IMG/VR virus record: IMGVR_UViG_3300032167_000002
Coordinates: 24,286-88,285 of that record
Direction: 5' to 3' (one strand)
DNA length: 64,000 nt
Source: a virus
Lineage: Duplodnaviria; Heunggongvirae; Uroviricota; Caudoviricetes
Made by a program: the position numbers and the translations under genes. The notes under the pieces are model-generated. The model saw only the letters and a list, made by a program, of their open reading frames with translations. It was not told the DNA's origin and searched no databases. Below, piece by piece: positions 14,517-29,425 of this stretch (its first letter is position 1; every line of letters starts with the position of its first letter).

Positions 14517-14897
14517 TGGTATATACCTCTTTCTTTTCTTATTGTATTATTATTATACAAAAAAATTTTATAAAAATCAAATGGCCGTTCGGCCTTGATT
14601 TTTATAAAAAAATATGTTATAATATTAAAAAAACATATTTTTACCGGTCGGCCCGCGTATATGCGGGCGGTTTTTGTAGGACCGGTCGGCTCCCGACCGG
14701 GGCTCACTTTACGGGAAAATTAAGTGCATATGAAAAGTCGCTAGAAGTAGCAAAAAATTTGCATATGGGGTGTACCGGTCGGAAAATCGGGCCTTGGCCT
14801 CCGTCCGCGGCCCGTTGAACCCCACCATTATTATACCATACCGGGCCGCACTTGTCAAGTGGTAAAATGAAAAAAAAATGAGACCCCTGCGGGGGTC

Positions 14898-15095
14898 TCA
14901 CCACCAATTCGGACCGAGGTCATCCAGCGTATAGCGGTCTTCGACTTCCGCAATGTCATCGAAAAACTCGCCATCCTCGCAACAGTTACAGCAAGCCACA
15001 TCGTCTGTGGTTTCCTGCCCCACATGGGTACACCGCATGCATCTATTTTCTGCGGTGGGCTTGGGGTTAATGAATCGGGTTTTCTTATTCTTCAT
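14898..15095 (-). CDS. Small Cys-rich protein
   Basis: CxxC...CCxCC; C-terminal LGPNWW. Confidence 0.6.
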   Translation of the reverse strand: MKNKKTRFINPKPTAENRCMRCTHVGQETTDDVACCNCCEDGEFFDDIAEVEDRYTLDDLGPNWW

Positions 15096-15222
15096 CCCAG
15101 TCATCCTCCTCACAGGGTGCTTTGCCGAAGCCATCGAAATGACAGCGGGGGTAATCTTCGTCCTCGTCCTGCCAGTAGTAGCCACAGCCACTATCAGCAC
15201 AGCCCAGATGCTTTTTGCTCAT
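15085..15222 (-). CDS. Small Cys-rich acidic protein
   Basis: MSKKHLGCADSGCGYYW...; overlaps its neighbours. Confidence 0.5.
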   Translation of the reverse strand: MSKKHLGCADSGCGYYWQDEDEDYPRCHFDGFGKAPCEEDDWDEE

Positions 15223-15340
15223 TGCCTTTGTCCTCGCTTTCTTTGGGGTTGGTGTTGGATTCTTCTTGGCATCCGCATCTATCGCATCGGCTTTCGTCAA
15301 TGTCGGTGCGCCAGTAGTTATCACATTTCAGACAGTTCAT
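15194..15340 (-). CDS. Small Cys-rich protein, 48 aa (not in ORF track)
   Basis: ATG behind promoter 15370-15398 and the AAAGGAACTGATAC leader; MNCLKCDNYW...CDRCGC. Confidence 0.6.
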   Translation of the reverse strand: MNCLKCDNYWRTDIDESRCDRCGCQEESNTNPKESEDKGNEQKASGLC

Positions 15341-15444
15341 TGTATCAGTTCCTTTCCTTTGATGAACTCATTATAGCACATTCTTGGAGATTTGTCAATA
15401 GGTTTTTGAAAAATATTTTTCGCCGGGGTTTCCACTCCCTGCCT

Positions 15445-16050
15445 TTAGAAAGGCAGTTCGTGGTGTTCCGCCGCCCACTGGCAAGCGATTTTGTTGTATT
15501 CCTCTGTGATGGAAGGAATGTCGATGAAAGAGCGACTTGCCATGTAGTCCGCCATGTGAACACATCTGTCCACGCTGGTGAAAGGTCTGTCCTCTCGTTC
15601 AGTAGACCATTGACCCATGTGACTTTCAACTGCGTTCAGCAGAAGAAAATGGGGAGTAAAATCGAACACCTGTTCGCACCAACCTGCAAAAGCCTTGCTT
15701 GCGTTTCTTGCGTGGTTCTTGTATTCTGCCTTGTCAAACCAATCGACACCATACTTTGCGGTATCATGGATGATACAAGCCGCAATTACGAAGTCCTTGT
15801 ACTCGTCTTTCATGTAGGCGTAGGAACTCATGCGGAGCAGTTCTTCAGCGAACATCACAACCGCCTTGGTGTGACGAACCAGACCGCCGATGCCCTGCGA
15901 AAACTGGGGATGATACTTGCCAGAAGAGGAAGCACCATCTGTCCAGAAGTAGTCAGGGGTGGCTTCTTCCATGTAAGACTTGACCGCCATACGCAGGTCT
16001 TCATTGACAATCAGATTGATTTCACGCTCAAACAGTTTAATGGTTCTCAT
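15445..16050 (-). CDS. HD-domain phosphohydrolase
   Basis: H(TKAV)...IIHDTAKYG...HMGQW...VHMADY metal-binding motifs. Confidence 0.85.
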   Translation of the reverse strand: MRTIKLFEREINLIVNEDLRMAVKSYMEEATPDYFWTDGASSSGKYHPQFSQGIGGLVRHTKAVVMFAEELLRMSSYAYMKDEYKDFVIAACIIHDTAKYGVDWFDKAEYKNHARNASKAFAGWCEQVFDFTPHFLLLNAVESHMGQWSTEREDRPFTSVDRCVHMADYMASRSFIDIPSITEEYNKIACQWAAEHHELPF

Positions 16051-16136
16051 AGTAAATTACCCTTTCTTGTGGAGCACTCGCTCCCTTGATTACATACTTA
16101 TTATAGCACAGACTTAATAATTTGTCAAGCACTTTT

Positions 16137-16307
16137 TTAATTTTCATTGGAAAAAGGAACACAAGCTAAAAGCTCATTAGACGCTAATTCGATAATGTAT
16201 CGATACATGGTTGCATCGTCATGGAGAGTTCCCCCAAAAGATAAAACAGTATCAATAATAACTTTGTGCAATTCAGCTTTAGCCTTGCGCATTTCTTCTG
16301 CGGTCAT
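16137..16307 (-). CDS. Hypothetical protein, 56 aa (not in ORF track)
   Basis: SD AGAGGTGAGG and its own promoter. Confidence 0.6.
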   Translation of the reverse strand: MTAEEMRKAKAELHKVIIDTVLSFGGTLHDDATMYRYIIELASNELLACVPFSNEN

Positions 16308-16496
16308 TTGCCTCACCTCTTAGGATTAGTATACCACCAATTGCGGGAAAAATCAAGATGACAAACTGCACAAAAAATTCGATTGGAAATTTACGGGGAC
16401 TAGTTATTTTGACGAATTCCGGGCGCCACACTCGTTGGCGCACGGCGCAAAAAAGCCCCTGCCCCACGAATTGGGGGCAGGGGGAGGAAGGGGTCA

Positions 16497-16865
16497 TCAC
16501 TGGATGACCCTGAAGAACGCCTTGCGCTTCTCCTCGATGCGCTCGACAGACACACCAATCATGCCACGCACGATGGCGCTCACTCGCTGATTAGTCAGCT
16601 CTGCGCAGGCAGGCACTTCCTTAATCAGCTCAGTGATGGAGAACAGACGATTGGGGTCTGCGCTCATGTGGGACAGAATGGCTTCTGCCACACCAGCATT
16701 GGCGACCTGCTGGGCAGTAGGCTTCTTCTCAGCAGAGTTCTTCTTCGCCAGGAGTTCCAGCTCATGCTCGATGAACTCGACCAGCGCAAGGTTGGACTTG
16801 ACCTCAGCCAGGGTCAGCAGGGTGTTGAAATGGTCCTTCTTAGTCAGCTTCTTAGTGTTTGCCAT
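16497..16865 (-). CDS. Probable winged-helix protein, paralog 1 of 3
   Basis: LLAKKNSAEKKPTAQQ...ITELIKEVPACAELTNQRVSAIVRG shared with 18032-18400 and 21070-21429. Confidence 0.75.
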   Translation of the reverse strand: MANTKKLTKKDHFNTLLTLAEVKSNLALVEFIEHELELLAKKNSAEKKPTAQQVANAGVAEAILSHMSADPNRLFSITELIKEVPACAELTNQRVSAIVRGMIGVSVERIEEKRKAFFRVIQ

Positions 16866-16974
16866 AGTATCAGTTCCTTTCTGGTTTTTTAGGGTTTTCC
16901 TTCCCTTGATTACATACTTATTATAGCACATGGTTTTGAGTTTGTCAAGAGGTTTTCAAAAAATATTCGCGACT

Positions 16975-17175
16975 ATTTTTTTTATTCCCACAGCATCCTT
17001 GCGCTCACTGGACTTGTTTCTGCCCCCTGCCTTGAGTCTACTCGCACCCTTTCGTTGCTCACCACTCACCCTAGTAGGGGGGAATCTTGCGTAGGAGTTG
17101 TAGAGTTTCAATTCGCCTGTGTCTGTTTCCACCATCTGTTGCGGTCTTGCCTCGAAGGAGTTCCCCTCTTGATTA
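16975..17175 (-). ncRNA. Candidate structured ncRNA (promoter-led, no SD/ORF)
   Basis: About 200 nt between promoter 17184-17212 and the next promoter; purine-rich with short stems capped by TTCG/GAAA/GCAA. Confidence 0.35.
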
Positions 17176-17543
17176 CATACTCATTATAGCACATCTTGTG
17201 CTGTTTGTCAAGTGGTTTTTCAAAAGTTTTTTGAAAAAGTTTCGGTGGTCTGATTGGTGGGACAATCTAACCCCTCTGCCCAACATTTTTCAACCCTCTG
17301 CGCCGACCCATCTGCGGGGGTTTACTTCATCCCCTTGACACTACTAATTATAGCAGATTTTTAGGAAAATGCAAGTGGTAATGTTGTACAAATAATTGGG
17401 TAAAAAACTTGTTGAACTTGTGCATTTTGCCGAATACCGGGCCGCACATCTGTGTGCGGCCGGCCGATTTTTGTGCAAATTGCACAAATTTAAATTTAAT
17501 TTGGAAAAAATAACGAAAAAATCGCCCTTTTGGGGCGATTTTC

Positions 17544-17915
17544 TCAACTTTTTGGCTTGCGTTTCTGCACAAGCGTCAGTTCGTAGGCATTTTCACCAAC
17601 TTTTAAGGCGATTTGACGCTCTTTATTGGTGATTTCGACCATTTCGTAGCCATTTTCAGCCAAAAACTGAGCAATTTCGGCAATTATCGTGGCTTTTGTG
17701 GGGTTTTCCTTGCGTTTTCGCTCGGTTTTCTGCCCATTTGTCTGCCTTGTGCCAGTATTTGCGAATTTTTTGGCTTGCTTTTCGGCTTCAGGTGAGAGGT
17801 CAAAAGCCATTCGCTCACCTCTGTCGATTGCCTTGTCGTCTGCGATAATCTGTTCGGCTTCTTCTTTGGAGCATTTCAGATTTCGCATAATGCGTTCGAC
17901 TTGACTTTCTGCCAT
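17544..17915 (-). CDS. Hypothetical protein, DDKAIDRG family, paralog 1 of 2
   Basis: EEAEQIIADDKAIDRGERMAFDLSPE matches 20585-20944. Confidence 0.75.
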   Translation of the reverse strand: MAESQVERIMRNLKCSKEEAEQIIADDKAIDRGERMAFDLSPEAEKQAKKFANTGTRQTNGQKTERKRKENPTKATIIAEIAQFLAENGYEMVEITNKERQIALKVGENAYELTLVQKRKPKS

Positions 17916-18031
17916 TGGTTTACCCCCTTTCTGTACTTACAGTATAGCACATCTTGGGCGGTTTGTCAAGACCTTTTTTGAAATTCCGTGCCCCATTTTG
18001 GGGGGGCTATTGCCCCCCCTTGGGGAGTGGC

Positions 18032-18400
18032 TCAGCGAATGGCTCTGAAATAAGCCTTTCGCTTCTCTTCCACACGCTCCACAGAGGTGCCGATGAGACC
18101 ACGCACGATTGCGGACACTCGCTGATTGGTCAACTCAGCACACGCAGGCACTTCCTTGATAACCTCAGTGATGGTAAAGAGGCGGTTGGGCTGGCTCTGG
18201 AGATGAGCCACGATGGCTTCGCCGATGGAAGCATTGGCGGTCTGCTGAGCAGTGGGTTTCTTCTCAGCGGAGTTCTTCTTGGCGAGCAACTCCAACTCGT
18301 GCTCGATGAACTCCACGAGCATTGCGTTCTCCGCAACAGCGGGGATAGCCTTGAGCATTGCAAACTTCTGAGCCTTGGTAATCTTCTGAGTAGTAGCCAT
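18032..18400 (-). CDS. Probable winged-helix protein, paralog 2 of 3
   Basis: Shared motifs as in paralog 1. Confidence 0.75.
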   Translation of the reverse strand: MATTQKITKAQKFAMLKAIPAVAENAMLVEFIEHELELLAKKNSAEKKPTAQQTANASIGEAIVAHLQSQPNRLFTITEVIKEVPACAELTNQRVSAIVRGLIGTSVERVEEKRKAYFRAIR

Positions 18401-18815
18401 AGTATCAATTCCTTTCTGGTTTTTAAGACTGTCCTTGTCTTTGTGTATTTATTATATCATAGGTTGAGCGATTTGTCAAGAGGTTTTTTTGATTTTTTTG
18501 AAAATCTTTTTTGAACCTTTGGCTTTCTCTCTCCCTTTGATGTATTCATTATATCACATCTTTGGGGGTTTGTCAAGAGGTTTTTTTAAGTTTTTCAAAC
18601 TTTTTTTCGGTCTGTCCGCTTGGGTCTCTCCCTTACTGACATAGATAGTATACCACATCCAAAAGCGAATTGCAATAGGCAAACTGCACAAATTACAGGA
18701 AAATTAAAAAGATTATTTTGTGCAACATTTCCTCTTGACAAATTGTGCGGGGCATGGTATAATGGTAAATTCGGCCGGGCACAGTCGCGCCCGGGCCGCG
18801 CAAAAAGCGAGGGTT

Positions 18816-19094
18816 TTACTCCTCGCTTTTCACCAGCTTCCGCACTTCGCCCAGAAGCTTCTTGATTTGTGCCATCTTTTCGTAGTCGTCCACGCAGGTT
18901 TCGATGGTGTCCACCAGATGGTCAATTTCGCCATTCAGATTGGCTTCGTACTTGCGGAAGCAGACAGTATCTCTGCCATCGATGAAGATTTCGAGGGGTT
19001 CGCCCTCGCGGATGCCCATTGACCGACGGATTTCTCTGGGGATAACCACTCTGCCGAGGTCATCAACTCTGCGGATAATTCCAGTTGCTTTCAT
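18816..19094 (-). CDS. AbrB/SpoVT-family transcriptional regulator
   Basis: MKATGIIRRVDDLGRVVIPREIRRSMGIREGEPLEIF is the canonical AbrB/SpoVT N-terminal domain. Confidence 0.9.
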   Translation of the reverse strand: MKATGIIRRVDDLGRVVIPREIRRSMGIREGEPLEIFIDGRDTVCFRKYEANLNGEIDHLVDTIETCVDDYEKMAQIKKLLGEVRKLVKSEE

Positions 19095-19162
19095 TGTATC
19101 AGTTCCTTTCCTCTTGGATTGTCTTAATTATAGCACATTTGGTGGAGTTTGTCAAGACCTTT

Positions 19163-19642
19163 TTACAAGGTCTTGCTTTCACTCACAAAGTATTTTGCAT
19201 CGTATTTTTCAAGCAAGGCTTTGACTTTCTTGCTTTTCTCTTGGCTGTCGCAGTAAATGTTGAACACAGACCACTTGCCGATTTTGGGAATGTAGTTGCA
19301 AGGGATTTCTTCTGCGGTCAAATCACAATGCAGGCTTTTGGTGTAGGGGTCAAAGACAGTTGCTTCAATCTTCCAAAGCTTGTCCTTGCGTGCCTTTTCT
19401 TCAATGAGTTTTACCACATAGACACCCACCAAATTACACAGAGCCACAATTCCTGCTTTGAGGTAGAGGTCAAGTTCACACATTAAGTAAACAGTGACGA
19501 TGGTGTACAGACCATAGGCAACCGCATTGATAACTGCGGCAGACACCTTTCCGCATTTAACAGTGGCGATAGATTTTACAGTTTGAATGATAACATTGGC
19601 GATGTTCAGAGCGATGAACACAATCAGCAATTTCGTATCCAT
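19163..19642 (-). CDS. Membrane protein, DUF5698/UPF0316-like, with small soluble C-domain
   Basis: Three hydrophobic helices (NVIIQTVKSIATVK...AAVINAVAYGLY) followed by a polar domain. Confidence 0.6.
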   Translation of the reverse strand: MDTKLLIVFIALNIANVIIQTVKSIATVKCGKVSAAVINAVAYGLYTIVTVYLMCELDLYLKAGIVALCNLVGVYVVKLIEEKARKDKLWKIEATVFDPYTKSLHCDLTAEEIPCNYIPKIGKWSVFNIYCDSQEKSKKVKALLEKYDAKYFVSESKTL

Positions 19643-19736
19643 TCACTTCACTTCCTTTCTGTGGTTATTATAGCACAAATCTCTCTGTTTGTCAATACCC
19701 TTTTGGAAATTATTTTTCCGGGCGGAGCCAAAGGGG

Positions 19737-19982
19737 TTAGAACCCCCTGGCATCCTTGTCGTTGTCCTTGGCAGGCATCGGCACCGCAGGAGTGGGAGCC
19801 TTTGGCTTGTTGATAATGGCATCCACCTGCTCATAGAGTGCGTAAGCCCTCTTGGACTTCTTGTACACCTTGCGGAGTTCGGAGTAGGTGAGGGAGTTGA
19901 ACTGCTCGTCGGTCATAGTGACACCGACCTTGCTGAGCTTGTTGCGGATGGACTTGAGGGACATTTCATTGAACATTTTCAT
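19737..19982 (-). CDS. Hypothetical protein
   Basis: Start behind the AAAGGAACTGATACT leader. Confidence 0.6.
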   Translation of the reverse strand: MKMFNEMSLKSIRNKLSKVGVTMTDEQFNSLTYSELRKVYKKSKRAYALYEQVDAIINKPKAPTPAVPMPAKDNDKDARGF

Positions 19983-20077
19983 AGTATCAGTTCCTTTCTT
20001 GTTTTCTGTAATTATTATAGCACACTTTTGGATGTTTGTCAATAGGTTTTTTGAAACTTTTTTTCTTTTGTGGGGAA

Positions 20078-20260
20078 TTAGTACCCCCCACAACCGCGGT
20101 AAGTGCGGAAGAGACTGTCAGCCTTTTCCTTGGTCATCGGACCGAACTCTTCGCAGTAGTAGCGGAAAGAGAGTTCATCCCAACACTCGACCACACAATC
20201 ACCGCCGTTGCAGTAGTTCTGCATTGCGTAGTCCATGAACTGCTTGTAAGTCATACCCAT
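20078..20260 (-). CDS. Hypothetical protein
   Basis: Own promoter; SD AAGGAGG. Confidence 0.6.
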   Translation of the reverse strand: MGMTYKQFMDYAMQNYCNGGDCVVECWDELSFRYYCEEFGPMTKEKADSLFRTYRGCGGY

Positions 20261-20584
20261 TGTTGTTACCTCCTTGACTTTGTACCCTTATTATACACCC
20301 GATAATGGGAAATGTCAATAGTCAATTTGCACAAAGATTTCGCCCCAAAAATTGTTGAAACTGGTTATTTCGCCGAAAAACCGGCGCTGGCGTACGTCAG
20401 CGCGCGGCCGAATTTTTGTGCAAAATGACGAAGACCCAAGGGCGCCCCCCTGGGTCTTTTCTCGGCTGTTTTGTTTTAGTACCATACCCCAGGGTTGGGC
20501 GCCTTCCCCCTAGTGGTTTACCTCCAGACGATGACAGCACACCGCCAATGGAATGGGGCCGATTGGCTCGACCCCTTAGGAGCC

Positions 20585-20944
20585 TTAGGAACGAGGGCAG
20601 GCAAGTGTGACCTTGTACTTCGTTCCATTGTGGATGAACAAGAACTCGCGTTCGGGGTTGTTGATGGTGAAATCTTCCACACCCAAAACTCGCAGACCAT
20701 CCATCATTGCGGAGCAGATTTCAGCCTTTTCAGGCTTGGCTTTCTTCTCTCGCTTCACTGGGGTGGTGCTGACCTTGCGCTCGGCTTGTCTTGCCTTTTT
20801 TGCGCCTTTCTCAAGTTCGGGGTCAAGCTCAAACATCTTTGCGCCCCTGTCGATTGCTTTGTCATCCTCAATCAACTGGATTGCTTCCTCTCGGCTGATG
20901 CCGAGGCTTGCCATGTGCTTGGCAATTAACTTTTCATCAAGCAT
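20585..20944 (-). CDS. Hypothetical protein, DDKAIDRG family, paralog 2 of 2
   Basis: EEAIQLIEDDKAIDRGAKMFELDPE. Confidence 0.75.
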   Translation of the reverse strand: MLDEKLIAKHMASLGISREEAIQLIEDDKAIDRGAKMFELDPELEKGAKKARQAERKVSTTPVKREKKAKPEKAEICSAMMDGLRVLGVEDFTINNPEREFLFIHNGTKYKVTLACPRS

Positions 20945-21069
20945 TGACTCACTTCCTTTCTGTGATTATAGTATAGCACAGACAGAGGGATTTGTCAAGT
21001 GCTTTTTGAAAATTTTTTCGCCGGGGTCAAGGTGGGCAGGGGTTACCCCCTGCCCTTGGGGGAGTAGGC

Positions 21070-21429
21070 TTACTCCGCAATCTTGCGGAAGTATGCCTTA
21101 CGCTTTTCCTCGACACGCTCAACCTTGGTGCCAATCATACCACGCACGATGGCAGAAACACGCTGGTTGGTCAGTTCCGCACACGCAGGAACAGTCTTGA
21201 TGAGGTCGGTGATGGTGTAGAGGACACCATCTTCCATCGCATTGACGATGGCATCAGCGACACCTGCGTTTGCCACCTGCTGTGCGGTCGGCTTCTTTTC
21301 CGCAGAGTTCTTCTTGGCGAGCAGTTCCAGTTCGTGGGCGATGAAAGCCTGCTCATCGGCAGTCAGAGGGTAGTTGGCAGAAATCTGCTTGAAGTAGTCA
21401 GCCTTGGTCATCTTCTTGTTGTTAGCCAT
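21070..21429 (-). CDS. Probable winged-helix protein, paralog 3 of 3
   Basis: Shared motifs as in paralog 1. Confidence 0.75.
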   Translation of the reverse strand: MANNKKMTKADYFKQISANYPLTADEQAFIAHELELLAKKNSAEKKPTAQQVANAGVADAIVNAMEDGVLYTITDLIKTVPACAELTNQRVSAIVRGMIGTKVERVEEKRKAYFRKIAE

Positions 21430-21554
21430 AGTATCAATTCCTTTCGGTTTTAACGACTTGAACCTGTCGATGAATTTATTTGTAAGAGGTTTTCCTCTTT
21501 ACATACTTATTATAGCACATCTTGATTTGTTTGTCAAGAGTTTTTTTTAATTTT

Positions 21555-21790
21555 TTTTTCTTTGGCTTGGCTGAGCCTTTAAGCCACAGTTAGGGTGAGT
21601 CCGCTTTCACCACCAAAGAAATTGGCTTTTGTATCCTGCGTATCCACGACATTTTTTCAGCCTGCGTGGTCTGGTTCACATTTGTATTCCGCAAACAGGA
21701 ACACCTTGCGGTCGGGTCATTGGTAACAAGGTCTTACTCGCTCTCGTGGGCACCCACCTTTTCGTGGTCGCCTTGCCCTCGCCTTTTGTA
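21555..21790 (-). ncRNA. Candidate structured ncRNA (promoter-led, no SD/ORF)
   Basis: About 235 nt after promoter 21796-21824; hairpins such as ACC-GCAA-GGT and CCAC-GAAAAG-GTGG; ends in a stem before an A/T run. Confidence 0.35.
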
Positions 21791-22102
21791 CCCTTATTGT
21801 ATCACACTTTAAGGGGTTTGTCAAGGGGTTTTCTCAATTTTTTTTGAGATTTTTTTTTCGCCCTTGGGGGCAGGCTCACCTATCTCCCCTTGACAATGAT
21901 AGTATACCACAGACCGCACCAAAAGTCAATAGGTAATAATGCACAAAAACAGGAATTCAAATCAATCAAACTTTGTGTAACTTTTCTCTTGACAAATTGC
22001 TGGCGGTGTGGTATAATGGAAATTCCGGCGCCCACATCCGAGGGCGCCGCGCCCAAAAATTGAAATGAAAAAGCCACCCCTTGCGGGATGGCTCTTGGTT
22101 TG

Positions 22103-22345
22103 TTACTTTGCCAGGTGTGCCATCAGCACACCCAGGGTCATCAGAGCGAACTCAGACTGGACGAACTGGTCGGGGTGGTTGACGAGGGCGAGGACTTCGC
22201 CAGTCAGACCATCAACGCAGTGGGCGTGGACACCATCCATGTCCCTCTGCATCATTTCCAGAACTGCGACCTCGGGGTCGTTGGTTTCGACAGTGACCTT
22301 GGCATCATCGTAGAAGCTCTCAACAACATACTTGTAGTTCATCAT
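22103..22345 (-). CDS. Hypothetical protein
   Basis: Start behind the AAAGGAAATGATACC leader. Confidence 0.6.
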   Translation of the reverse strand: MMNYKYVVESFYDDAKVTVETNDPEVAVLEMMQRDMDGVHAHCVDGLTGEVLALVNHPDQFVQSEFALMTLGVLMAHLAK

Positions 22346-22433
22346 GGTATCATTTCCTTTCTGGTGTTTGGGATTTTCCTTTCCCTTTGTTGTATTTATT
22401 ATAGCACACTCTTGGGGGTTTGTCAAGGGTTTT

Positions 22434-22841
22434 TTACATTCTTTCAGAAAAATATTTGAAACCCTTTTCGCAGATTTCGAGATAAACCTCTCGGCTTACT
22501 CTCACCCACTCTTCGCTTTTTTCTACCTTGCCTTTGCAAACTGCATACAAAATTGCGTGGCACTGCCATTCGGACTTGCCGACCATGGGGCGGGGAATGG
22601 TACAAAAATCAATGTGGAACATTCCAGGGTTGGTGGTGAGATAATCTTTCATTCTGCGTTGCAGGTTGTAGCTTTTACCAACCTTTACCAAATAGATTTC
22701 TTCATGGGTAAAGGGATTGAAATTGGTGCTACCTACAAGGTACAAACCTTCGCTTTCGGGTGCAGAGAAGCGCAGGGGGTTTGCTTCGTTAATAAATGCG
22801 GGAGTATTTCGCATAGCTTCCAAATGTTCTGCCCAAGTCAT
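22434..22841 (-). CDS. GIY-YIG superfamily (T5orf172-like) protein
   Basis: GLYLVG...LVKVGKSYNLQRRMKDY...EEWV. Confidence 0.65.
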   Translation of the reverse strand: MTWAEHLEAMRNTPAFINEANPLRFSAPESEGLYLVGSTNFNPFTHEEIYLVKVGKSYNLQRRMKDYLTTNPGMFHIDFCTIPRPMVGKSEWQCHAILYAVCKGKVEKSEEWVRVSREVYLEICEKGFKYFSERM

Positions 22842-22930
22842 TACTGTCAGTTCCTTTCTTGTTTTCTGAGTTAATTATAGCACATGATTTTGAATTTGTC
22901 AATACCTTTTTTCGCCCGGGAGGGCAGATT

Positions 22931-23590
22931 TTAGAATCTGCCCTTGACCACTTGGAAGCGATAGGCGGAATCGCCCTTGTGAACATTGCGAGTAAACTTG
23001 CGGTGAGTTGCCCAAACCGCACGCAGAATCTGCATTTCGATTTCACAATCTGCGAGGGCGGTGTGTTCCTCGACGAACTCAATGTCTCCGCTGATGAAGC
23101 GGTAGCAGATTTCTGCGGTCATCTGAACGTTTCCGCTCTTGGTTACAAAGCCATTTTCACAGCAGAATTTGTTGTACTTGGTGTACTTGCCGATGGTCTC
23201 GAAAAATGCCTGCCAAGTGTCGATGAATTCCATTCCCTCGATACACTCAGCAACGAAAGTCTTGTTGAAGTCAAAACCGCTGTTGTGGGCGCAGGCGCAG
23301 GACACATTGTTTTCAGCAAGCCACGCAGAGAAGATTTCGCTTGCCTCTGCTTCGTTGTAGCAGATAATAGTTGCAGGGTCGCGGAGCAGGTCGCGGTAGT
23401 AGTCTTTTTTGAATTTGCCATAGAACGCAGAATCCAAAAGTAGGTTGCCGATGACCACGATGTTGATTCTGCTGATTTCTGCTCTCTTGGTGAAAGCAAT
23501 GCCAGCGCAGTGGTAGGTAGGGCAGTGCGCCTGAGAAGCACCGCCGAGGGTTTCAGTGTCGATAATTGCAAAAGTTTTTTCAGTAAACAT
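22931..23590 (-). CDS. DEDDh 3'-5' exonuclease
   Basis: IIDTET, AHNSGFD and EHTALAD motifs. Confidence 0.85.
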   Translation of the reverse strand: MFTEKTFAIIDTETLGGASQAHCPTYHCAGIAFTKRAEISRINIVVIGNLLLDSAFYGKFKKDYYRDLLRDPATIICYNEAEASEIFSAWLAENNVSCACAHNSGFDFNKTFVAECIEGMEFIDTWQAFFETIGKYTKYNKFCCENGFVTKSGNVQMTAEICYRFISGDIEFVEEHTALADCEIEMQILRAVWATHRKFTRNVHKGDSAYRFQVVKGRF

Positions 23591-23674
23591 TGGTATCATT
23601 TCCTTTCACTTGATAAATTTATTATAGCACAGATTGTTTGATTTGTCAATACCTTTTTTTAATTTTTCCGGGGA

Positions 23675-24079
23675 TTAGCCTTGCTGTAAGGCTACTCCCC
23701 TTTCACGCAGGTATTCTGCGAACTCGTCCGCAGGAAGTTTGTCCATGAGGGTGGACATGGGCAGGTGGGAGACTTCTTTGGTGTAGTTCCACACGCACAC
23801 CTCTTTGAAGTTCCTCTTGGTGACAGTATAGTGGTTCATGCCACATTTCACCAATACCTTGGGGGTCTTGAACAGACCGATGTAGGCTTCTGCATTTCTT
23901 ACCTTGTTTTCACAGACCGCTTCAAAAAAGCTCTCGAAAGTGTCGTAGTAAGTGCGGTTGGTGCGGTCGAGGGATTCTTCCGCATCGAGCAGGTGCAGGT
24001 GCCACCAAATAGAAGTTTCTTCAAAATCTCTGCGAGGAGACAGAGAGATGGATTGTCCGCAATCGTAAACCAGTTTCAT
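23675..24079 (-). CDS. Hypothetical protein
   Basis: Own promoter and shared leader. Confidence 0.65.
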   Translation of the reverse strand: MKLVYDCGQSISLSPRRDFEETSIWWHLHLLDAEESLDRTNRTYYDTFESFFEAVCENKVRNAEAYIGLFKTPKVLVKCGMNHYTVTKRNFKEVCVWNYTKEVSHLPMSTLMDKLPADEFAEYLRERGVALQQG

Positions 24080-24249
24080 GTGTATCAGTTCCTTTCCTTT
24101 GTTGATACTATTGTATCACACCTTTTGGGATTTGTCAACTGTTATTTTGCACAAATAAATTGCACGGAAAATTGTTGAAACTGGTTATTCTGACGAAAAT
24201 CGGCGCGCCTGGACCGTGAGCGCGCCGCCAAAAACAAACGACTGCTTTT

Positions 24250-24519
24250 TCAGCAGTCGTAAGTATAACAACCTGCGAAGGGGTCGAACCCGCATTCGTC
24301 CGCATCGGGCTCGTCCTCGCTTTCGCCCTGGGTCTGTTCCAGGTCGCGGTATCCTGCAAGGGTGTATTCCTCGTGCCACTGGTAATGGTTTCCGCAGTGG
24401 TCGCACTCGCCAACCTTAAAGAGGGTCACAGTGGTGTTGTCCACCTCAATGTCGAGAGTATCGAACTCAACAACCTCGCCCCCGCAAGTGGGGCAAACTA
24501 CAATTCCAGTTTTCAGCAT
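24250..24519 (-). CDS. Small zinc-ribbon protein
   Basis: CPTC...CDHC; acidic tail. Confidence 0.65.
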   Translation of the reverse strand: MLKTGIVVCPTCGGEVVEFDTLDIEVDNTTVTLFKVGECDHCGNHYQWHEEYTLAGYRDLEQTQGESEDEPDADECGFDPFAGCYTYDC

Positions 24520-24662
24520 TCTTCATCATCCTCCAATCTTTCTTTGATTGCTTCAACGATTATCTTGCCGACCTTGACAGCCATCATCAAGGCGAATGCT
24601 CCGACAAAGCCAACCAATGCCCAGCCGATTTCTTCGGGGATTGCGCAAATCATTTCTAACAT
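24513..24662 (-). CDS. Small membrane protein, 49 aa (not in ORF track)
   Basis: Promoter 24694-24722, shared leader, one TM helix. Confidence 0.55.
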   Translation of the reverse strand: MLEMICAIPEEIGWALVGFVGAFALMMAVKVGKIIVEAIKERLEDDEEC

Positions 24663-24732
24663 TTTTATCAGTTCCTTTCTTCTTTGTGTCTTAATTATAG
24701 CACATCAATTGCCGTTTGTCAAGAGGAAATTC

Positions 24733-25185
24733 TCAGATTTCTCTGAGAATTTCCAAGATGTTCTGCACATCGTAGGCTCTGCCTGTCCAGTTCGTTCTGT
24801 TGCGTTCTTCATCGTCGAACAGAATGTCGAGAGGATTGTTGCAGAAGTTCTGCTTCGGAGTGCCATAGGGAACGATGTGGATTTCGTTCCAGTTCACGCT
24901 CGGCAGGTGCTTTCTCAGCCAGTTCAGCTTGACTTCGGTAACTGCTTCGTTGTATTCAGCAGTTCCACTTTTGCTCAACCAAGAGATAACTGCGAGGTTG
25001 TAGCCGTTCCGCTGAAGTGCGTTCAGCTTGCGAGCCAGTGCGGAGAGGTGGAGCAGAGGTCTTGCGTTTGCGTAGGGGAAAGTGTCACCTGCGATGAGGT
25101 ATTCGAGCCAGTTCTCTACACCATAGAGGTCAGCGATTGTGCCGTCCATGTCGAAGTTAATTGTGATGTTCATCTGCTTTGCCAT
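24733..25185 (-). CDS. HAD-superfamily phosphatase, 5'(3')-nucleotidase-like
   Basis: FDMDGTIAD motif I; K...LFDD motif III/IV. Confidence 0.8.
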   Translation of the reverse strand: MAKQMNITINFDMDGTIADLYGVENWLEYLIAGDTFPYANARPLLHLSALARKLNALQRNGYNLAVISWLSKSGTAEYNEAVTEVKLNWLRKHLPSVNWNEIHIVPYGTPKQNFCNNPLDILFDDEERNRTNWTGRAYDVQNILEILREI

Positions 25186-25275
25186 TTGTATCAGTTCCTT
25201 TCCTTTTTGTACCTTAATTATACACCCAAAACCGTGATTTGTCAATACCTTTTTTGAAAAAAGGGAAAGTTTTTT

Positions 25276-25749
25276 TTACTTTCCCTTTTTCATTTCTCTT
25301 GCCCGCTTCTGTGCCTTGTGGAGCACATCCACATTGGTCAGGCTTGCGTTTTCGTACTTGACCTGATACTGAACGCCACCGATTTCCACATCACCGCAGT
25401 AGTCAAAGCGGACATGGTCGGGAGTGTACTCACCCAGACCGCAAGCCTTGTGCAGATAGGCTTCGCACTTGTGACCCTTGTTCTTGTAAGGAATGGCTTC
25501 AAATTCAGCCTTGGTCATGATGGGGGTTGCACCCTTGGCAATCAGCTTATCCTTTTCGGATACGCTGATGTACATCTTGAATTTCTGCTGTCCGCCGTTC
25601 TTGGAGGACTCAAATTCTTCGTGTGCCCAACGAGGAGCGATGTGCTTGCAGTTGTAGATGTAGATGATACCCTTGCGCTCGAAGAAAATCAGAGTGCGGT
25701 CAGCGCCAGTCAGCTTGTTGTAGTAGCGGAAGAAATTACCCTTAGTCAT
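25276..25749 (-). CDS. Hypothetical protein, possible PD-(D/E)XK fold
   Basis: GDVEIGGVQYQVKY resembles a D...QxK nuclease motif. Confidence 0.55.
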   Translation of the reverse strand: MTKGNFFRYYNKLTGADRTLIFFERKGIIYIYNCKHIAPRWAHEEFESSKNGGQQKFKMYISVSEKDKLIAKGATPIMTKAEFEAIPYKNKGHKCEAYLHKACGLGEYTPDHVRFDYCGDVEIGGVQYQVKYENASLTNVDVLHKAQKRAREMKKGK

Positions 25750-26044
25750 TGTTATTATCTCCTTTTCAGTTCCTTTTTGTATCTTAATTATAACACCAGT
25801 TTCCCGGTTTGTCAAGAACTTTTTTTCATTTTCTTGAACTTTTTTTTGATTTAGTGGTCTCTCTCAACCACAAGAACATTGTATCACATCCGGAATAGAA
25901 AGTCAAGCACAATTTTAGGAAAAACAACTATTTATTTTTTGTGCAAATTGCCTATTGACAAATTGCTGGGGCTGTGGTATAATGGAAATAACGCGCGCCT
26001 GGGCCGTGGGCGCGCGACCGAAAAAGCAAAATGGAAAAAGCGCC

Positions 26045-26284
26045 TTAGTAGTAAGGCGCTTCGATTTCCAGTATCTCGGTTTGAATGAGTGTAAAATGTG
26101 CCCTGAACCGACACCCGCACCCGCAAATGTAATCGTCTTTTTTCTCTCTGCGGTTGCTTGTATTGTCCTGGTACACCAGTTCGGATTGGGCACTACTCCC
26201 GCAGTTAGGACATCTAATGCGAGGGTCACGCAATTGTGCTTGCCACTCTCGTGCTATTTCTGCTGCTGTTTTCATTGTTCTCAC
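26045..26284 (-). CDS. Small zinc-ribbon protein
   Basis: CPNC...CGC. Confidence 0.65.
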   Translation of the reverse strand: MRTMKTAAEIAREWQAQLRDPRIRCPNCGSSAQSELVYQDNTSNRREKKDDYICGCGCRFRAHFTLIQTEILEIEAPYY

Positions 26285-26320
26285 CTCTTGGCATTATTAT
26301 AACATGGTTTGGGGATTTTG

Positions 26321-26545
26321 TCAACCCCCGCAAGCACATTTTTTTTCGTAATGTTCTCTAACAAGGAGAGCATCCCGCACTCGCTTCTGGTTGAAATCTT
26401 CTTTGTGAATTACTGTGCAATAGTAGTATTTTGTGCGGAAAATGGGCCAATTGGGATGAATTATCTTTCGATAGACTACATGAACATAGTCTTCGCCGAG
26501 CTTCCATGTGGCTTCGTACTCACCATCTGCCCCTTTAATAATCAT
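26321..26545 (-). CDS. Hypothetical protein
   Basis: ATGA-type coupling to the upstream gene. Confidence 0.55.
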   Translation of the reverse strand: MIIKGADGEYEATWKLGEDYVHVVYRKIIHPNWPIFRTKYYYCTVIHKEDFNQKRVRDALLVREHYEKKCACGG

Positions 26546-26697
26546 CCATTATCACCCCTTTTGAATTTCTGTCTGTTGTATTTCTTCTTGCTTTCTACCA
26601 CAGAGCCACGCTTGCGAAAGTGGAGATACTGCTGAAGTTCTTCTCCCTCTTTCTTGAACATTCTGCGGTCGATTGTGTTTTTCTTTTTCTTACTCAT
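26542..26697 (-). CDS. Small, very basic protein
   Basis: 51 aa, K/R-rich; own promoter and SD AGAGG. Confidence 0.65.
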   Translation of the reverse strand: MSKKKKNTIDRRMFKKEGEELQQYLHFRKRGSVVESKKKYNRQKFKRGDNG

Positions 26698-26759
26698 TTC
26701 GTTTACCTCTTTTCTTTTTGTAATTAAATTATACCATAGATTTAGGGATTTGTCAACCC

Positions 26760-27086
26760 CTAAATCCAATTATTTTCACAGTCCCATGCTTTTGCCCGTC
26801 TGATGATTTCAGAGTAACCAGCAGGAGGATAACCACCAGTAGTTTCGTAGAACATCTTGCAGGCAATCTTCCATCTTGCAGGGTAGGCGGTGACAAGAAT
26901 GTTGCTCTTGGCATCCATTACCATTAAGATACCAGTGGAAGTCAAGCAGTTTCTCTTTCCTCTGTAAATTGTGGTGCAAATGATTTCGCCGAAGCCTAAC
27001 TCTCTATCCATTTTTACAAGTCTTTCTCTGCGTTCGGTGTAGCAGTGGTCGGTGAAACTCACGGTGATGCTCATGCTCTTTAACAT
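26760..27086 (-). CDS. Hypothetical protein
   Basis: Own promoter; SD GAGGAG. Confidence 0.65.
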   Translation of the reverse strand: MLKSMSITVSFTDHCYTERRERLVKMDRELGFGEIICTTIYRGKRNCLTSTGILMVMDAKSNILVTAYPARWKIACKMFYETTGGYPPAGYSEIIRRAKAWDCENNWI

Positions 27087-27153
27087 TTGATTTACTCTCC
27101 TCTCTTTTTGTATCTTAATTATAACACGGGAAAGGGGTTTTGTCAACCCCTTT

Positions 27154-27594
27154 TCAAAAAATTTTTTCGCCAATGTTTGTCACAACTGTGGCTTCAATCC
27201 ACCGCACGCAAATGCCCTTGCTTTCCAAAAGGCGATAGTATTGCAGGTCGTTGTCGAAATTTTGTTCGAAGTCTGCGATTGCCTTAAAGTTTGCGAGGAT
27301 GGGGTTCTTGTGGTAGCGGAACTCAAGACGAGCACGCCAAGCCTCTTTGCTCTGCGAGGGTGCGAGGATAACAAAGGGAATGTTGTTGTTCATGCAGTAT
27401 TCAATCACCACACGATGAGCGGAGATGAATACATTCTTGTCAGTAGCGAGGGCAACCGCCGTCCGCACATAGTTTTCTTCCCATCCTGCGACCTTGACAA
27501 ATGCGGAGCTGTCGAGGTCAACAGTAGTATTGGGGTTATTTCTACAGTAGGTAGATTTTCCACTACCCTGATAGCCACAGTAAATCATTTTCAT
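27154..27594 (-). CDS. P-loop NTPase, nucleotide-kinase-like
   Basis: N-terminal GYQGSGKST Walker A followed by DLDS. Confidence 0.75.
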   Translation of the reverse strand: MKMIYCGYQGSGKSTYCRNNPNTTVDLDSSAFVKVAGWEENYVRTAVALATDKNVFISAHRVVIEYCMNNNIPFVILAPSQSKEAWRARLEFRYHKNPILANFKAIADFEQNFDNDLQYYRLLESKGICVRWIEATVVTNIGEKIF

Positions 27595-27645
27595 TTCAGT
27601 TCCTTTCCTTTTGTACCTACATTGTATCACAGAGAAAGGCTTTTG

Positions 27646-27969
27646 TCAAGCCTTTTCTGCGAGAATTTCCAAAAGTTCATAGCCAGAAAGGAAAGTATTT
27701 CCTGCGAGGTGGTAGGCTCGGCAGTGCTCAGCCAGTTCTTCCCTTGCTCTGTCGTAGCTACGCAGAGCGGAAACCAGTACCCATTTATCCTCGGTTACAT
27801 CGCCCGCAAACATCTTGTATTCTGCGGACTCTTGGGGCAACATAGCCATTGCCTTCTGTCTGCGGTTGATGACTCTCACACAGTACTCAATCTTGTCCTT
27901 TGCATTGCGAGTAGCGATGACGAGTTCGTCTCTCTTGGTCTCTTCGGCAGTCTTGGTAATCTTCTTCAT
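27646..27969 (-). CDS. Hypothetical protein
   Basis: Own promoter; SD AAGGAG. Confidence 0.65.
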   Translation of the reverse strand: MKKITKTAEETKRDELVIATRNAKDKIEYCVRVINRRQKAMAMLPQESAEYKMFAGDVTEDKWVLVSALRSYDRAREELAEHCRAYHLAGNTFLSGYELLEILAEKA

Positions 27970-28181
27970 GGTGTTTAGCTCCTTTGTTCTTTTGTTGTAC
28001 TTAGTATACCACACGGAGACCGATTTGTCAATACCTTTTGGGAAAAATAATTATTTATTTTTTTTCTAATTTTCCTCTTGACAAAATGGCTGGGATGTGT
28101 TATACTGGCAATTAGGGCGCGCCAGGACCGTTGGCGCGCCTATGGCGGGATTCGTCACATTGCACAATTAAAGGGTGTGCC

Positions 28182-28403
28182 TTACTCTTGGCACACCCTC
28201 ATCAGCAGTCTCTCATAGGACACACCTGCTACCTTACACAGCACACGCAGGTTGTCTCTCACCATCAGCTTCTCTGCGTAGGTGATGTCCTCGTTGTCCT
28301 TGTTCAGTACCATGATGATGTACTTGTACTGATGGCTTGCCTGCACCTCAGGCTTTAGCTCTCTTACTGTGCTCAGCATCTTGTTGATAGGTCTCTTGTT
28401 CAT
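28182..28403 (-). CDS. Hypothetical protein
   Basis: SD GAGGAGG; terminator hairpin over the stop codon. Confidence 0.6.
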   Translation of the reverse strand: MNKRPINKMLSTVRELKPEVQASHQYKYIIMVLNKDNEDITYAEKLMVRDNLRVLCKVAGVSYERLLMRVCQE

Positions 28404-28420
28404 TGTCTTGTCCTCCTCTA

Positions 28421-28576
28421 TTAGTTCTTGTTGACAGCGATGATAGTGGCAATAGCAGCTACGCCAAAGGCTACGACTAGAGCCACAAGAGTGATACCCA
28501 GCCACTCAGGACAAGTAGTAGTATTGTCAAGGTTGCTGTTAGCAATCCACATAGCGATGTTGTTAGAAATGGTCAT
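28421..28576 (-). CDS. Small membrane protein, 51 aa (not in ORF track)
   Basis: SD AAGGAG; one TM helix. Confidence 0.55.
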   Translation of the reverse strand: MTISNNIAMWIANSNLDNTTTCPEWLGITLVALVVAFGVAAIATIIAVNKN

Positions 28577-28781
28577 TGTTGTTATCTCCTTTACTCTGTG
28601 AGGTTGTGTCCCTCTCTCTTTGTGTCTTTATTATAGCATTACGGGAGCTTTTTGTCAAGAGTTTTTTTGCTTATTTACGCAACTTTTTTTTAGCACCCCC
28701 TACAGTATGCCCCACTAGGGGACCTGACGCCTGTGCTCGGTGGCTACTACTACATAGTATAATAGAGTAAGGCTGTGTACC

Positions 28782-29063
28782 TTACTCTACATCTACTACT
28801 CTGTCATCATAGATAGTATCACTGCCCATGGCTAGCATGGTTAGCACTACCCTTGTGCCTACACATGGTACAGTGTCACCCTCTACATCATAGCACCACA
28901 CATTGCCTGTGGTGTCCTCTGCGCTGATGGTGTTACCCTCTACCTCTACTACCACAGCTTCTCTTGTGTACCTATCATTAAGCTGTGCTTGACCTAGTGC
29001 ATTGAAGGTCACTACCAGTAGTATAGCACACAGCACACACAGTACCTTCTCACTCATTGTCAT
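28782..29063 (-). CDS. Signal-peptide/TM protein with small beta-barrel-like domain
   Basis: Hydrophobic N-terminus, then VVEVEGNTISAEDTTGNVW. Confidence 0.6.
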   Translation of the reverse strand: MTMSEKVLCVLCAILLVVTFNALGQAQLNDRYTREAVVVEVEGNTISAEDTTGNVWCYDVEGDTVPCVGTRVVLTMLAMGSDTIYDDRVVDVE

Positions 29064-29425
29064 TACCTCACTGTTCCTTTGTTGTATCTACAGTATACCA
29101 CATTACAGGATGTTTGTCAATAGGTAAGATGCACAAATGTGTAGAACTTTTTTTGTGTAGGGTATTATTGCATGGCAGCTAGGGCCGCGCCGCACGTGCA
29201 CGGCCCAGCGTGTGTATTGTGTATGTATTATTGTGTGTGTATTGTTTATTATACATACATTATTGTGTATGTATGAGGATGTGTTGTGTGTGTCTTTGCG
29301 CCTCTTTGCCGGGGCTGGCAATACCTTTGCTGTGTGCGCTCGCCGCGACGCAGACTATAGACTTTGTGTTTTTCCCCAGATGTGAATAAAACCCCGGGGC
29401 CTATTTCGGGAAAAAAATTTTTTTG

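Follow-up and report, generated by a model that had tools for sequence, protein, structure and literature searches.

A covarying GC-rich hairpin at the junctions of early transcription units in a group of large uncultured phages

Introduction

Why would a phage set strong promoters against the direction of its own genes, so that they fire into GC-rich hairpins at the borders between transcription units? The question is raised by a 64,000-nt stretch of DNA from a large gut phage (hereafter the window; positions 24286-88285 of IMG/VR virus record IMGVR_UViG_3300032167_000002, Caudoviricetes), in which a block of small genes at 14.8-29.2 kb, every one of them on the minus strand, is punctuated by ten modules composed of promoters, short sequence boxes and a GC-rich hairpin. 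An earlier note, made from the letters of the window, had likened these modules to the promoter-early stem-loop (PeSL) cassettes of T4-type phages and proposed that they are either a regulated family of small hairpin RNAs or cruciform recombination sites under the control of one DNA-binding protein. In the analysis described here the hairpin proved to be the constant, selected core of the module, and the promoters that fire into it are frequent and precisely placed yet optional.

The 402,311-base record consists of two colinear, related phage genomes of ~200 kb arranged head to tail, and is probably a chimeric or concatenated assembly rather than a single genome. Genome 1, which holds the window, is 65-88% identical in nucleotide sequence to genome 2 at an offset of ~203 kb, and the counterpart of the small-gene block lies at 243-259 kb in genome 2. 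Large uncultured phages of the gut and rumen give 15-20 kb over to such arrays of tiny early genes, whose probable use is in taking over the host and countering its defences, and the cassette examined here is a conserved, clade-wide part of their wiring: a covarying hairpin fused to perfect host-type promoters that point the "wrong" way.

Results and Discussion

The hairpin is a conserved, covarying element

Eighteen hairpin copies from genomes 1 and 2 were aligned with MAFFT and used to build a covariance model, R1; the alignment was almost free of gaps, so that the hairpin has a constant geometry of 27 nt. R1 identified 20 copies in the record; every one lies on the plus strand within the two early arrays, and the next match is at E = 0.7. 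The ten modules of the earlier note were all found at or near where it had placed them, and they form one homologous structured family. The two hairpins quoted in that note were exact. Across the record, 16 of 20 strict GC hairpins and 15 of 16 occurrences of the TGCACAAA box fall within the two arrays. A strict IUPAC pattern for scanning sequence collections proved too insensitive and was dropped. A promoter-plus-flank pattern retrieved 16 loci from IMG/VR, and R1, then run on five of those records, found 9, 9, 4, 7 and 7 copies, on a single strand in each record and within ~17 kb.

Among 49 distinct copies, 83.4% of cells were paired, compared with 35-42% when the partners were slid by one to three columns, and none of 500 shuffles reached the observed pairing or covariation score. 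Both-sided changes occurred in eight of the nine stem pairs, three of which were split near 50:50 between C-G and G-C, and RNAalifold returned the same stem register from a structure-blind alignment. Positional orthologs in diverged genomes keep their pairing while their stem sequences differ, and the hairpins diverge faster than their flanks. The stem is under selection for pairing, which is kept by compensatory changes. The consensus reads AAATT, CSGSSCGC, an 11-nt loop C-A-C-R-N-N-C-G-T-S-R, GCGSSCSG and CC-N-AA, with stems of 8-10 bp that are near-perfect, loops of 7-11 nt, and G-C making up 96% of the Watson-Crick pairs. Three positions are invariant: one A in the 5′ flank, the loop G (within CGT) and one stem G.

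No match to Rfam was obtained at gathering score in the window, and at 14-30 kb matches were at chance level (E 0.2-5), with none on a hairpin. R1 found nothing in five gut Firmicute genomes and a single match in 150 Clostridia genomes, on a contig that is itself a phage fragment with a complete module; mimicry of a host element was rejected on these results. Mimicry of a CRISPR repeat (an RNA anti-CRISPR) was likewise rejected, the stems being different in each copy and no repeat-like tail being conserved. The element is real, conserved across the whole phage group and outside the catalogued RNA families, and R1 can serve as a searchable marker for the early regions of this group. The matching contig (L133; G020:C51:1339-4390), which had been binned in a Clostridia genome, holds a complete module, convergent promoters and an early-promoter array; either this phage fragment was mis-binned or it gives a hint of the host.

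Anatomy of the modules

Read leftward, each module runs from the intrinsic terminator of the right-hand unit through the 27-nt hairpin and, in four window copies, a backward (rightward) promoter, followed by a spacer and the first leftward promoter of the next unit. The spacer is A/T-rich and bounded by TTTGTGCA boxes that lie 9-10 bp upstream of -35 boxes. Every hairpin sits between a minus-strand terminator, from which it is 5-40 nt downstream, and the next promoter cluster.

Three arrangements were seen around the hairpins of the window. In class A (four copies) a rightward promoter, P_R, ends its -10 box 7-8 nt ahead of the stem, so placed that transcripts are predicted to start 2-4 nt before the hairpin; these promoters (starting at 18735, 21989, 25955 and 28078) score 12/12, 12/12, 12/12 and 11/12 to consensus, have TG-extended -10 boxes and are followed by no open reading frame (ORF). 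In class B (five copies) neither side of the hairpin has a credible promoter; the sequence homologous to the rightward promoter, although itself conserved between genomes, no longer has -35 and -10 boxes. At hairpin 1 only a leftward promoter abuts (14830-14858), an arrangement also seen elsewhere (L026). The elements of the ten modules are listed below in window coordinates.

14789-14813, plus: hairpin 1 (GGGCC, 15-nt loop with CCGT, GGCCC); diverged and missed by the model; positional ortholog of hairpins in genome 2, G001, G002 and G004
14830-14858, minus: perfect leftward promoter into hairpin 1 from the right (P_L2 type); 12/12, TG-extended
14877-14902, minus: intrinsic terminator of the right-hand unit (terminator scan)
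16328-16356, minus: first leftward promoter of module 2 (TTGATT / TATACT)
16367-16374, plus: TGCACAAA box, module 2
16419-16445, plus: hairpin 2, class B, without rightward promoter
16456-16483, minus: right-hand unit's terminator, module 2
17385-17392, plus: box variant TGTACAAA, module 3
17440-17461, plus: hairpin 3, class B
17470-17488, no strand: perfect 19-bp palindrome TTTGTGCAAATTGCACAAA (TTTGTGCA-AAT-TGCACAAA), operator-like, between hairpin 3 and terminator
17514-17546, minus: right-hand unit's terminator, module 3
18647-18675, minus: first leftward promoter of module 4 (TTGCAA / TATACT)
18685-18692, plus: TGCACAAA box, module 4
18717-18724, plus: TTTGTGCA box, module 4, 10 nt ahead of the rightward -35 box
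18735-18763, plus: perfect rightward promoter P_R, module 4
18773-18797, plus: hairpin 4, class A, beginning 9 nt past the -10 box
18807-18826, no strand: terminator hairpin preceded by an A run and followed by a short T run, partly bidirectional
20290-20318, minus: first leftward promoter of module 5
20328-20335, plus: TGCACAAA box, module 5
20381-20407, plus: hairpin 5, class B; sole copy that also scores as a minus-strand terminator (20403-20384)
20415-20422, plus: TTTGTGCA box to the right of hairpin 5
20431-20458, minus: right-hand unit's terminator, module 5
21901-21929, minus: first leftward promoter of module 6
21940-21947, plus: TGCACAAA box, module 6
21972-21979, plus: TTTGTGTA box, module 6
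21989-22017, plus: perfect rightward promoter P_R, module 6
22026-22049, plus: hairpin 6, class A
22073-22092, minus: right-hand unit's terminator hairpin, module 6 (A run on the plus strand)
24110-24138, minus: first leftward promoter of module 7
24148-24155, plus: TGCACAAA box, module 7
24201-24227, plus: hairpin 7, class B
24238-24260, minus: right-hand unit's terminator, module 7
25878-25906, minus: first leftward promoter of module 8
25938-25945, plus: TTTGTGCA box, module 8
25955-25983, plus: perfect rightward promoter P_R, module 8
25992-26016, plus: hairpin 8, class A
26037-26062, minus: right-hand unit's terminator, module 8
28003-28031, minus: first leftward promoter of module 9
28078-28106, plus: rightward promoter P_R, module 9, 11/12 to consensus
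28115-28141, plus: hairpin 9, class A
28173-28198, minus: right-hand unit's terminator hairpin, module 9
29092-29120, minus: first leftward promoter of module 10
29130-29137, plus: TGCACAAA box, module 10
29182-29206, plus: hairpin 10, class B, final element of the array

The first module had been described as inverted; its hairpin is in the usual orientation, and what sets the module apart is the leftward promoter that enters from the right. The earlier note had also described four rightward promoters that fire into the hairpin and then meet a terminator with no ORF between. The promoters, the hairpins and the lack of an ORF hold, whereas the terminators serve the leftward strand: the 3′ hairpins beyond the P_R promoters are oriented for the opposite strand, none is accepted by the plus-strand terminator scan, and a short T run follows just one of them (18807-18826). 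The module hairpin itself is followed on the plus strand by GCCGAAAA and on the minus strand by AAUUU, neither of which supplies the U tract of an intrinsic terminator.

Promoters that fire into the hairpin are precisely placed and optional

Across seven arrays all 24 promoters of the P_R family are coupled to a hairpin that lies 7-8 nt past the -10 box. Predicted P_R RNAs fold into a 5′ hairpin and a 3′ hairpin, with z-scores of -2.2 to -6.1. In the relatives G001, G002 and G004 and in the G020 contig a further arrangement, class C, is common, in which, besides the class A promoter, a consensus promoter reads leftward with its -10 box at 2-4 nt from the right arm of the hairpin, so that the two converge on it; the leftward transcript is predicted to start within the arm and hence to lack the hairpin. 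No window module has both convergent promoters, four having P_R only and one the leftward promoter only.

Two readings of the hairpin and its flank as promoters in their own right were rejected. A sigma-28-like reading of the class B flank GCCGAAAA failed since the motif is not reused elsewhere in the genome, and for the same reason the flank is probably not a promoter for the sigma-70-family gene of the phage. A hairpin promoter of the N4 type was dismissed because no phage RNA polymerase was found, in a search that is weak in part (see below), and each genome has just one sigma-70-family gene; N4-type promoters, moreover, have a 5-7 bp stem and a 3-nt loop, compared with loops of 7-11 nt here.

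A promoter-rich early array, probably read by the host polymerase

The hairpins lie in a region crowded with promoters. Between 14.8 and 29.2 kb the minus strand holds 22 perfect (12/12) and about ten near-perfect promoters of the sigma-A type, and 25 promoters score 12/12 between 14 and 30 kb; 64 promoter-like sites were counted in the array region compared with 20.8 ± 5.2 in shuffles. The array promoters follow the TG-extended, Firmicute-like consensus, and about one in four belongs to a module. No phage RNA polymerase was found in either genome, PF00940 and PF00623 being without a match (the PF00940 control was also silent, so that this part of the search is weak), and each phage genome has one gene of the sigma-70 family, of ~307 aa (G000:C1:190018-190230 and 388237-388449, minus strand). 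The modules are junctions between leftward early transcription units, and the phage probably uses the housekeeping RNA polymerase of its host.

Consensus promoters are also stacked 60-100 nt apart with no ORF between them (18451-18479, 18548-18576, 18647-18675, 21796-21824, 21901-21929 and 25878-25906), and the leftward promoter of a module often has just a short leader before the next promoter.

Boxes and candidate regulators

In the window the TGCACAAA box starts at 16367, 17481, 18685, 20328, 21940, 24148 and 29130. The spacing reported earlier was confirmed: the start of the box lies 10-11 nt past the leftward -35 box, and 9-10 nt separate a rightward TTGACA from the end of the mirror TTTGTG(C/T)A, which precedes it at 18717, 21972 and 25938. 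Across the seven arrays the distance from TTTGTRYA to the -35 box downstream of it is 9-10 nt in 36 cases and 19-20 nt, one helical turn more, in six, a phasing that fits a protein site acting on polymerase from one face of the helix. The box accompanies 15 of 24 P_R, 18 of 43 first leftward, 4 of 18 convergent and 4 of 214 internal leftward promoters. The TTTGTGCA-AAT-TGCACAAA palindrome occurs in two genomes (window 17470-17488; G005) and looks like a full operator of which the boxes would be half-sites.

A candidate for the protein that binds the boxes is a 122-aa protein with three paralogs in the window, 68-71% identical to one another (16497-16865, 18032-18400 and 21070-21429, minus strand), and at least two copies in each relative; wherever its position was checked, no other real gene lies between it and the module on its right. 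Sequence searches of Pfam, PHROGs and PDB sequences with the paralogs gave no match. In a structural model (pLDDT 88) the N-terminal part consists of helices and the C-terminal part forms a winged helix, and the model's similarities to solved structures, weak but consistent (E 0.02-0.1), are to PagR, Fur, ArsR/SmtB, AspA, Z-alpha and DsrD. The window also encodes a 92-aa protein of the AbrB/SpoVT type (18816-19094, minus strand; phrog_4681 "antitoxin", E 1.9e-19). A type I toxin-antitoxin arrangement was rejected, since the genes facing the backward promoters encode soluble proteins of 73-92 aa (one of them AbrB-like) rather than small membrane toxins.

Rearrangements between relatives fall at the modules

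Outside indels and replacements the arrays of G001, G002 and G004 are 88-97% identical, and their breakpoints, counted from the first base of the hairpin, lie at +3, +7, +31 (twice or more), +75 (three alleles), -36 and -143/+100, with two more distant at about -140/-270 and -690. One locus was found in three states (L048:2255-2620, L049:1830-2790 and the reverse complement of L050, first 420 nt): a single hairpin in G004; two hairpins, 122 nt apart and with no gene between them, in G001; and, in G002, the same pair separated by a 673-nt gene, the junction lying directly past the hairpin and GKCCA. Whole units have changed position between genomes 1 and 2, the AbrB unit being attached to a different module in each. 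Breakpoints do therefore fall at modules among related phages, as the earlier note had anticipated, and the modules are where arrays are cut and pasted, in the manner of PeSLs.

A site-specific mechanism does not follow from this, because the breakpoints do not coincide at one nucleotide, because near-identical promoters abutting a variable hairpin would by themselves put homologous crossovers there, and because no gene for a tyrosine or serine recombinase or for a Y1 transposase was found: neither genome had a match to PF00589 (for which controls were positive), PF00239 or PF01797.

What the module may do

We infer from the anatomy of the modules, and from that alone, that each may be a cis-acting boundary cassette between early units, which works through interference by antisense and convergent promoters, gives rise to short RNAs with a 5′ hairpin and serves also as a recombination joint; the preference is tentative and may well prove mistaken. 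The backward promoter would load host polymerase at the junction and yield an RNA of ~65-100 nt that carries the hairpin at its 5′ end, ends in or passes through the neighbour's terminator and runs antisense to that neighbour's 3′ end. Polymerases loaded at the junction would meet head-on those that leak through the terminator and those from convergent promoters. The hairpin, as the fixed core, would probably be a structure recognised by a protein or a stop or pause signal for leftward read-through, and the boxes could be sites for a phage regulator that balances the promoters. Since conserved promoters flank a variable hairpin, the cassette would also be a site at which units are exchanged, gained and lost. 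Interference between convergent promoters is known in Bacillus subtilis (PMC12802891), and antisense and intergenic small RNAs occur in the early terminal-repeat region of phage K (PMC9241854).

Several observations weigh against such a boundary cassette. Its weak point is the role of the hairpin in copies that lack a promoter: class B hairpins match the others in pairing (7.2 versus 7.0 of 8 pairs), so that the hairpin's own role cannot depend on the backward promoter, and the strand of the loop motif is constant even where only a leftward promoter abuts. On the minus strand, where the hairpin might stop read-through, one of the ten copies passes the terminator scan and AAUUU is a poor tail. 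G-U pairs are as frequent as A-C mismatches (13 of each); this lends no favour to a plus-strand RNA, and the test is silent on which strand, if any, works as RNA. There is no evident need for insulation between the units of an array that is early throughout. Two metatranscriptome runs hold parts of the stretch as contigs without strand, ends or levels, in which joints are ambiguous, the modules being repeats.

Four rival explanations were weighed. It is unlikely that the modules make trans-acting small RNAs, abundant and stable, that act as decoys or sponges by binding protein through an AAAUU flank, the stem and a CGU loop. Such RNAs would explain why perfect promoters keep one register with the hairpin in all 24 cases, why no ORF lies past the promoter, why the predicted RNAs are strongly structured and why loop and flank positions stay constant as the stem covaries, a pattern also seen in RNA hairpins bound by protein. 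They would leave without explanation the hairpins that have no promoter and are maintained equally well, and a promoter-driven small RNA therefore cannot be the whole story. Nor is the RNA conserved beyond the hairpin, a decoy would need no copy-specific stem, G-U pairs are not in excess, Rfam holds no match, and 149 of 150 Clostridia genomes have no similar element, the remaining match being the phage fragment. The regulated family of small hairpin RNAs put forward earlier thus fails as an account of all copies, given the promoter-less hairpins and the constant strand of the loop. An improbable alternative is a back-up terminator or pause site, in which the complement of the hairpin halts leaked polymerases before they reach the next promoter cluster and the flanking promoters are incidental. 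The position of the hairpin, always 5-40 nt downstream of a minus-strand terminator, its GC-only, terminator-like stem and the short conserved U run (AAUUU) on the minus strand would suit this role, and one copy (20403-20384) does pass the scan; yet two A's separate the stem from a mere three U's, nine of ten copies fail, and a terminator would need neither an invariant loop G nor a fixed 27-nt geometry nor a promoter register.

Other explanations place the function in DNA. That the modules are recombination joints, the hairpin marking cassette borders and being either folded in single-stranded DNA or extruded as a cruciform and used in an attC-like manner by some structure-specific enzyme, or the module being simply a preferred site of homologous exchange as in PeSLs, seems to us rather doubtful. 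In its favour, structure is conserved while sequence varies, with one orientation per genome and always at unit borders; pairing is kept without promoters; mismatches show no G-U bias; hairpins diverge faster than flanks; and the indel breakpoints of G001, G002 and G004 cluster at hairpin edges, with the graded G004/G001/G002 series at one locus joined just past the hairpin and GKCCA. The same breakpoints are scattered (+3, +7, +31, +75, -36), near-identical abutting promoters would place homologous crossovers exactly at the hairpin, unit borders also simply tolerate insertions, and neither genome encodes a tyrosine or serine recombinase or a Y1 transposase. Short stems with 11-nt loops extrude poorly as cruciforms, and the cruciform recombination sites proposed earlier are disfavoured by stems of 8-10 bp and loops of 7-11 nt as well as by the missing enzymes. 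A narrower form, in which the hairpin is a folded single-stranded DNA site where an unrecognised phage enzyme inserts and excises self-expressed cassettes, with the flanking promoters aiding unwinding and folding, is very improbable; if true, it would amount to an integron-like cassette system in the early region of a virulent phage, without a tyrosine recombinase. Still harder to credit is another strand-specific DNA signal, used when the genome enters the cell or replicates: a site for priming or nicking, for example, or one that attenuates an exonuclease, which transcription would help to expose. Uniform orientation, confinement to one block of the genome, conserved GCGC-type cores and promoters on either side that melt one arm of the palindrome could be accommodated by such a signal, which is speculative: no supporting gene or known motif was found, and ten copies in 15 kb are unlike known origins or packaging sites.

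Were the boundary cassette confirmed as an insulator or interference device, it would show a phage grading and timing dozens of genes with host polymerase alone, and were it a recombination joint it would explain how the arrays are reshuffled. The cassette also offers compact promoter, hairpin and terminator parts for use in Firmicutes.

Comparison with known systems

PeSL cassettes (Arbiol et al. 2010, PMC2839356; Comeau et al. 2014, PMC4122927) resemble the modules in being a repeated composite intergenic motif in which a strong host-type early promoter lies beside a GC stem-loop, in being concentrated in a hyperplastic block of small early genes without known function, and in harbouring the ends of indels and replacements between relatives. 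The stem-loop of a PeSL is a terminator or attenuator and may overlap the promoter, whereas here a separate canonical terminator stands beside each hairpin; its promoter drives the next gene, whereas the hairpin-fused promoter here points against the genes; and the PeSL motif ends in a Shine-Dalgarno sequence and a start codon, whereas the hairpin-linked promoter here has no ORF. Mini-circles that arise by exchange between motifs are a further mark of PeSLs. The element described here is, further, a distinct one of 27 nt, with a covarying stem and conserved loop and flanks, in a phage lineage with a Firmicute-type host that is unrelated to T4-type phages. The PeSL analogy is therefore apt for the array as a whole, and it breaks down at the hairpin, which is probably not the terminator and whose promoter faces away from the genes.

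Dual control by convergent promoters has been described for helD and pps of B. subtilis (Sudzinova et al., NAR 2026, PMC12802891), where facing promoters lie within ~45-100 bp. No such pair is present in the window; in the relatives (G001, G002, G004 and the G020 contig) a sense promoter upstream of genes does have a stronger antisense sigma-A promoter facing it from a few tens of bp away (~40 bp), and by this analogy transcriptional interference would be expected there. The -10 boxes are 45-55 nt apart at helD and pps compared with ~38-41 nt in the relatives, and the paper reports no GC palindrome, whereas here one fills the gap; the rifampicin response of helD and pps has no bearing on the modules.

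For integron attC sites the likeness lies in hairpins of conserved structure and variable sequence, in one orientation, at the borders of swappable cassettes. Here, by contrast, there is no integrase (PF00589 is without a match), there are no R″/L″ or L′/R′ core boxes or extrahelical bases, the element is 27 nt rather than 57-141 nt long, and the cassettes carry their own promoters and terminators. Lambda OOP and P22 sar are cis-antisense small RNAs of phages that are made from their own promoters at single loci with a defined target. With these and with the antisense RNAs of phage K (PMC9241854) the modules would share a short non-coding RNA, here a predicted one, that has its own promoter and runs against early genes at the 3′ end of a neighbour. 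They differ in having 4-9 copies per genome, a shared 5′ hairpin and no conserved region for pairing with a target, and in that a promoter is present in four of the ten window copies, half of the hairpins being without one.

Other features of the phage and its array

A protein encoded in the capsid region (window 39102-40640) has relatives in gut-metagenome phages and in Bacillus phages, and megablast against GenBank phages gave no match. An attempt to identify the host through the FolD gene of the phage was abandoned, as the best matches were just 44% identical and spread over many phyla.

The left border of the array (window 14640-14790), which is free of ORFs, holds three CCGGTCGG palindromes (14644, 14682 and 14775) and adjoins plus- and minus-strand promoters at 14552-14623; several copies of CCGATCGG occur at the equivalent left border in genome 2, G001, G002 and G004. 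Within the array, the minus-strand gene at 22434-22841 encodes a 135-aa protein with a T5orf172 (GIY-YIG-like) domain (E 9e-7), possibly a nuclease.

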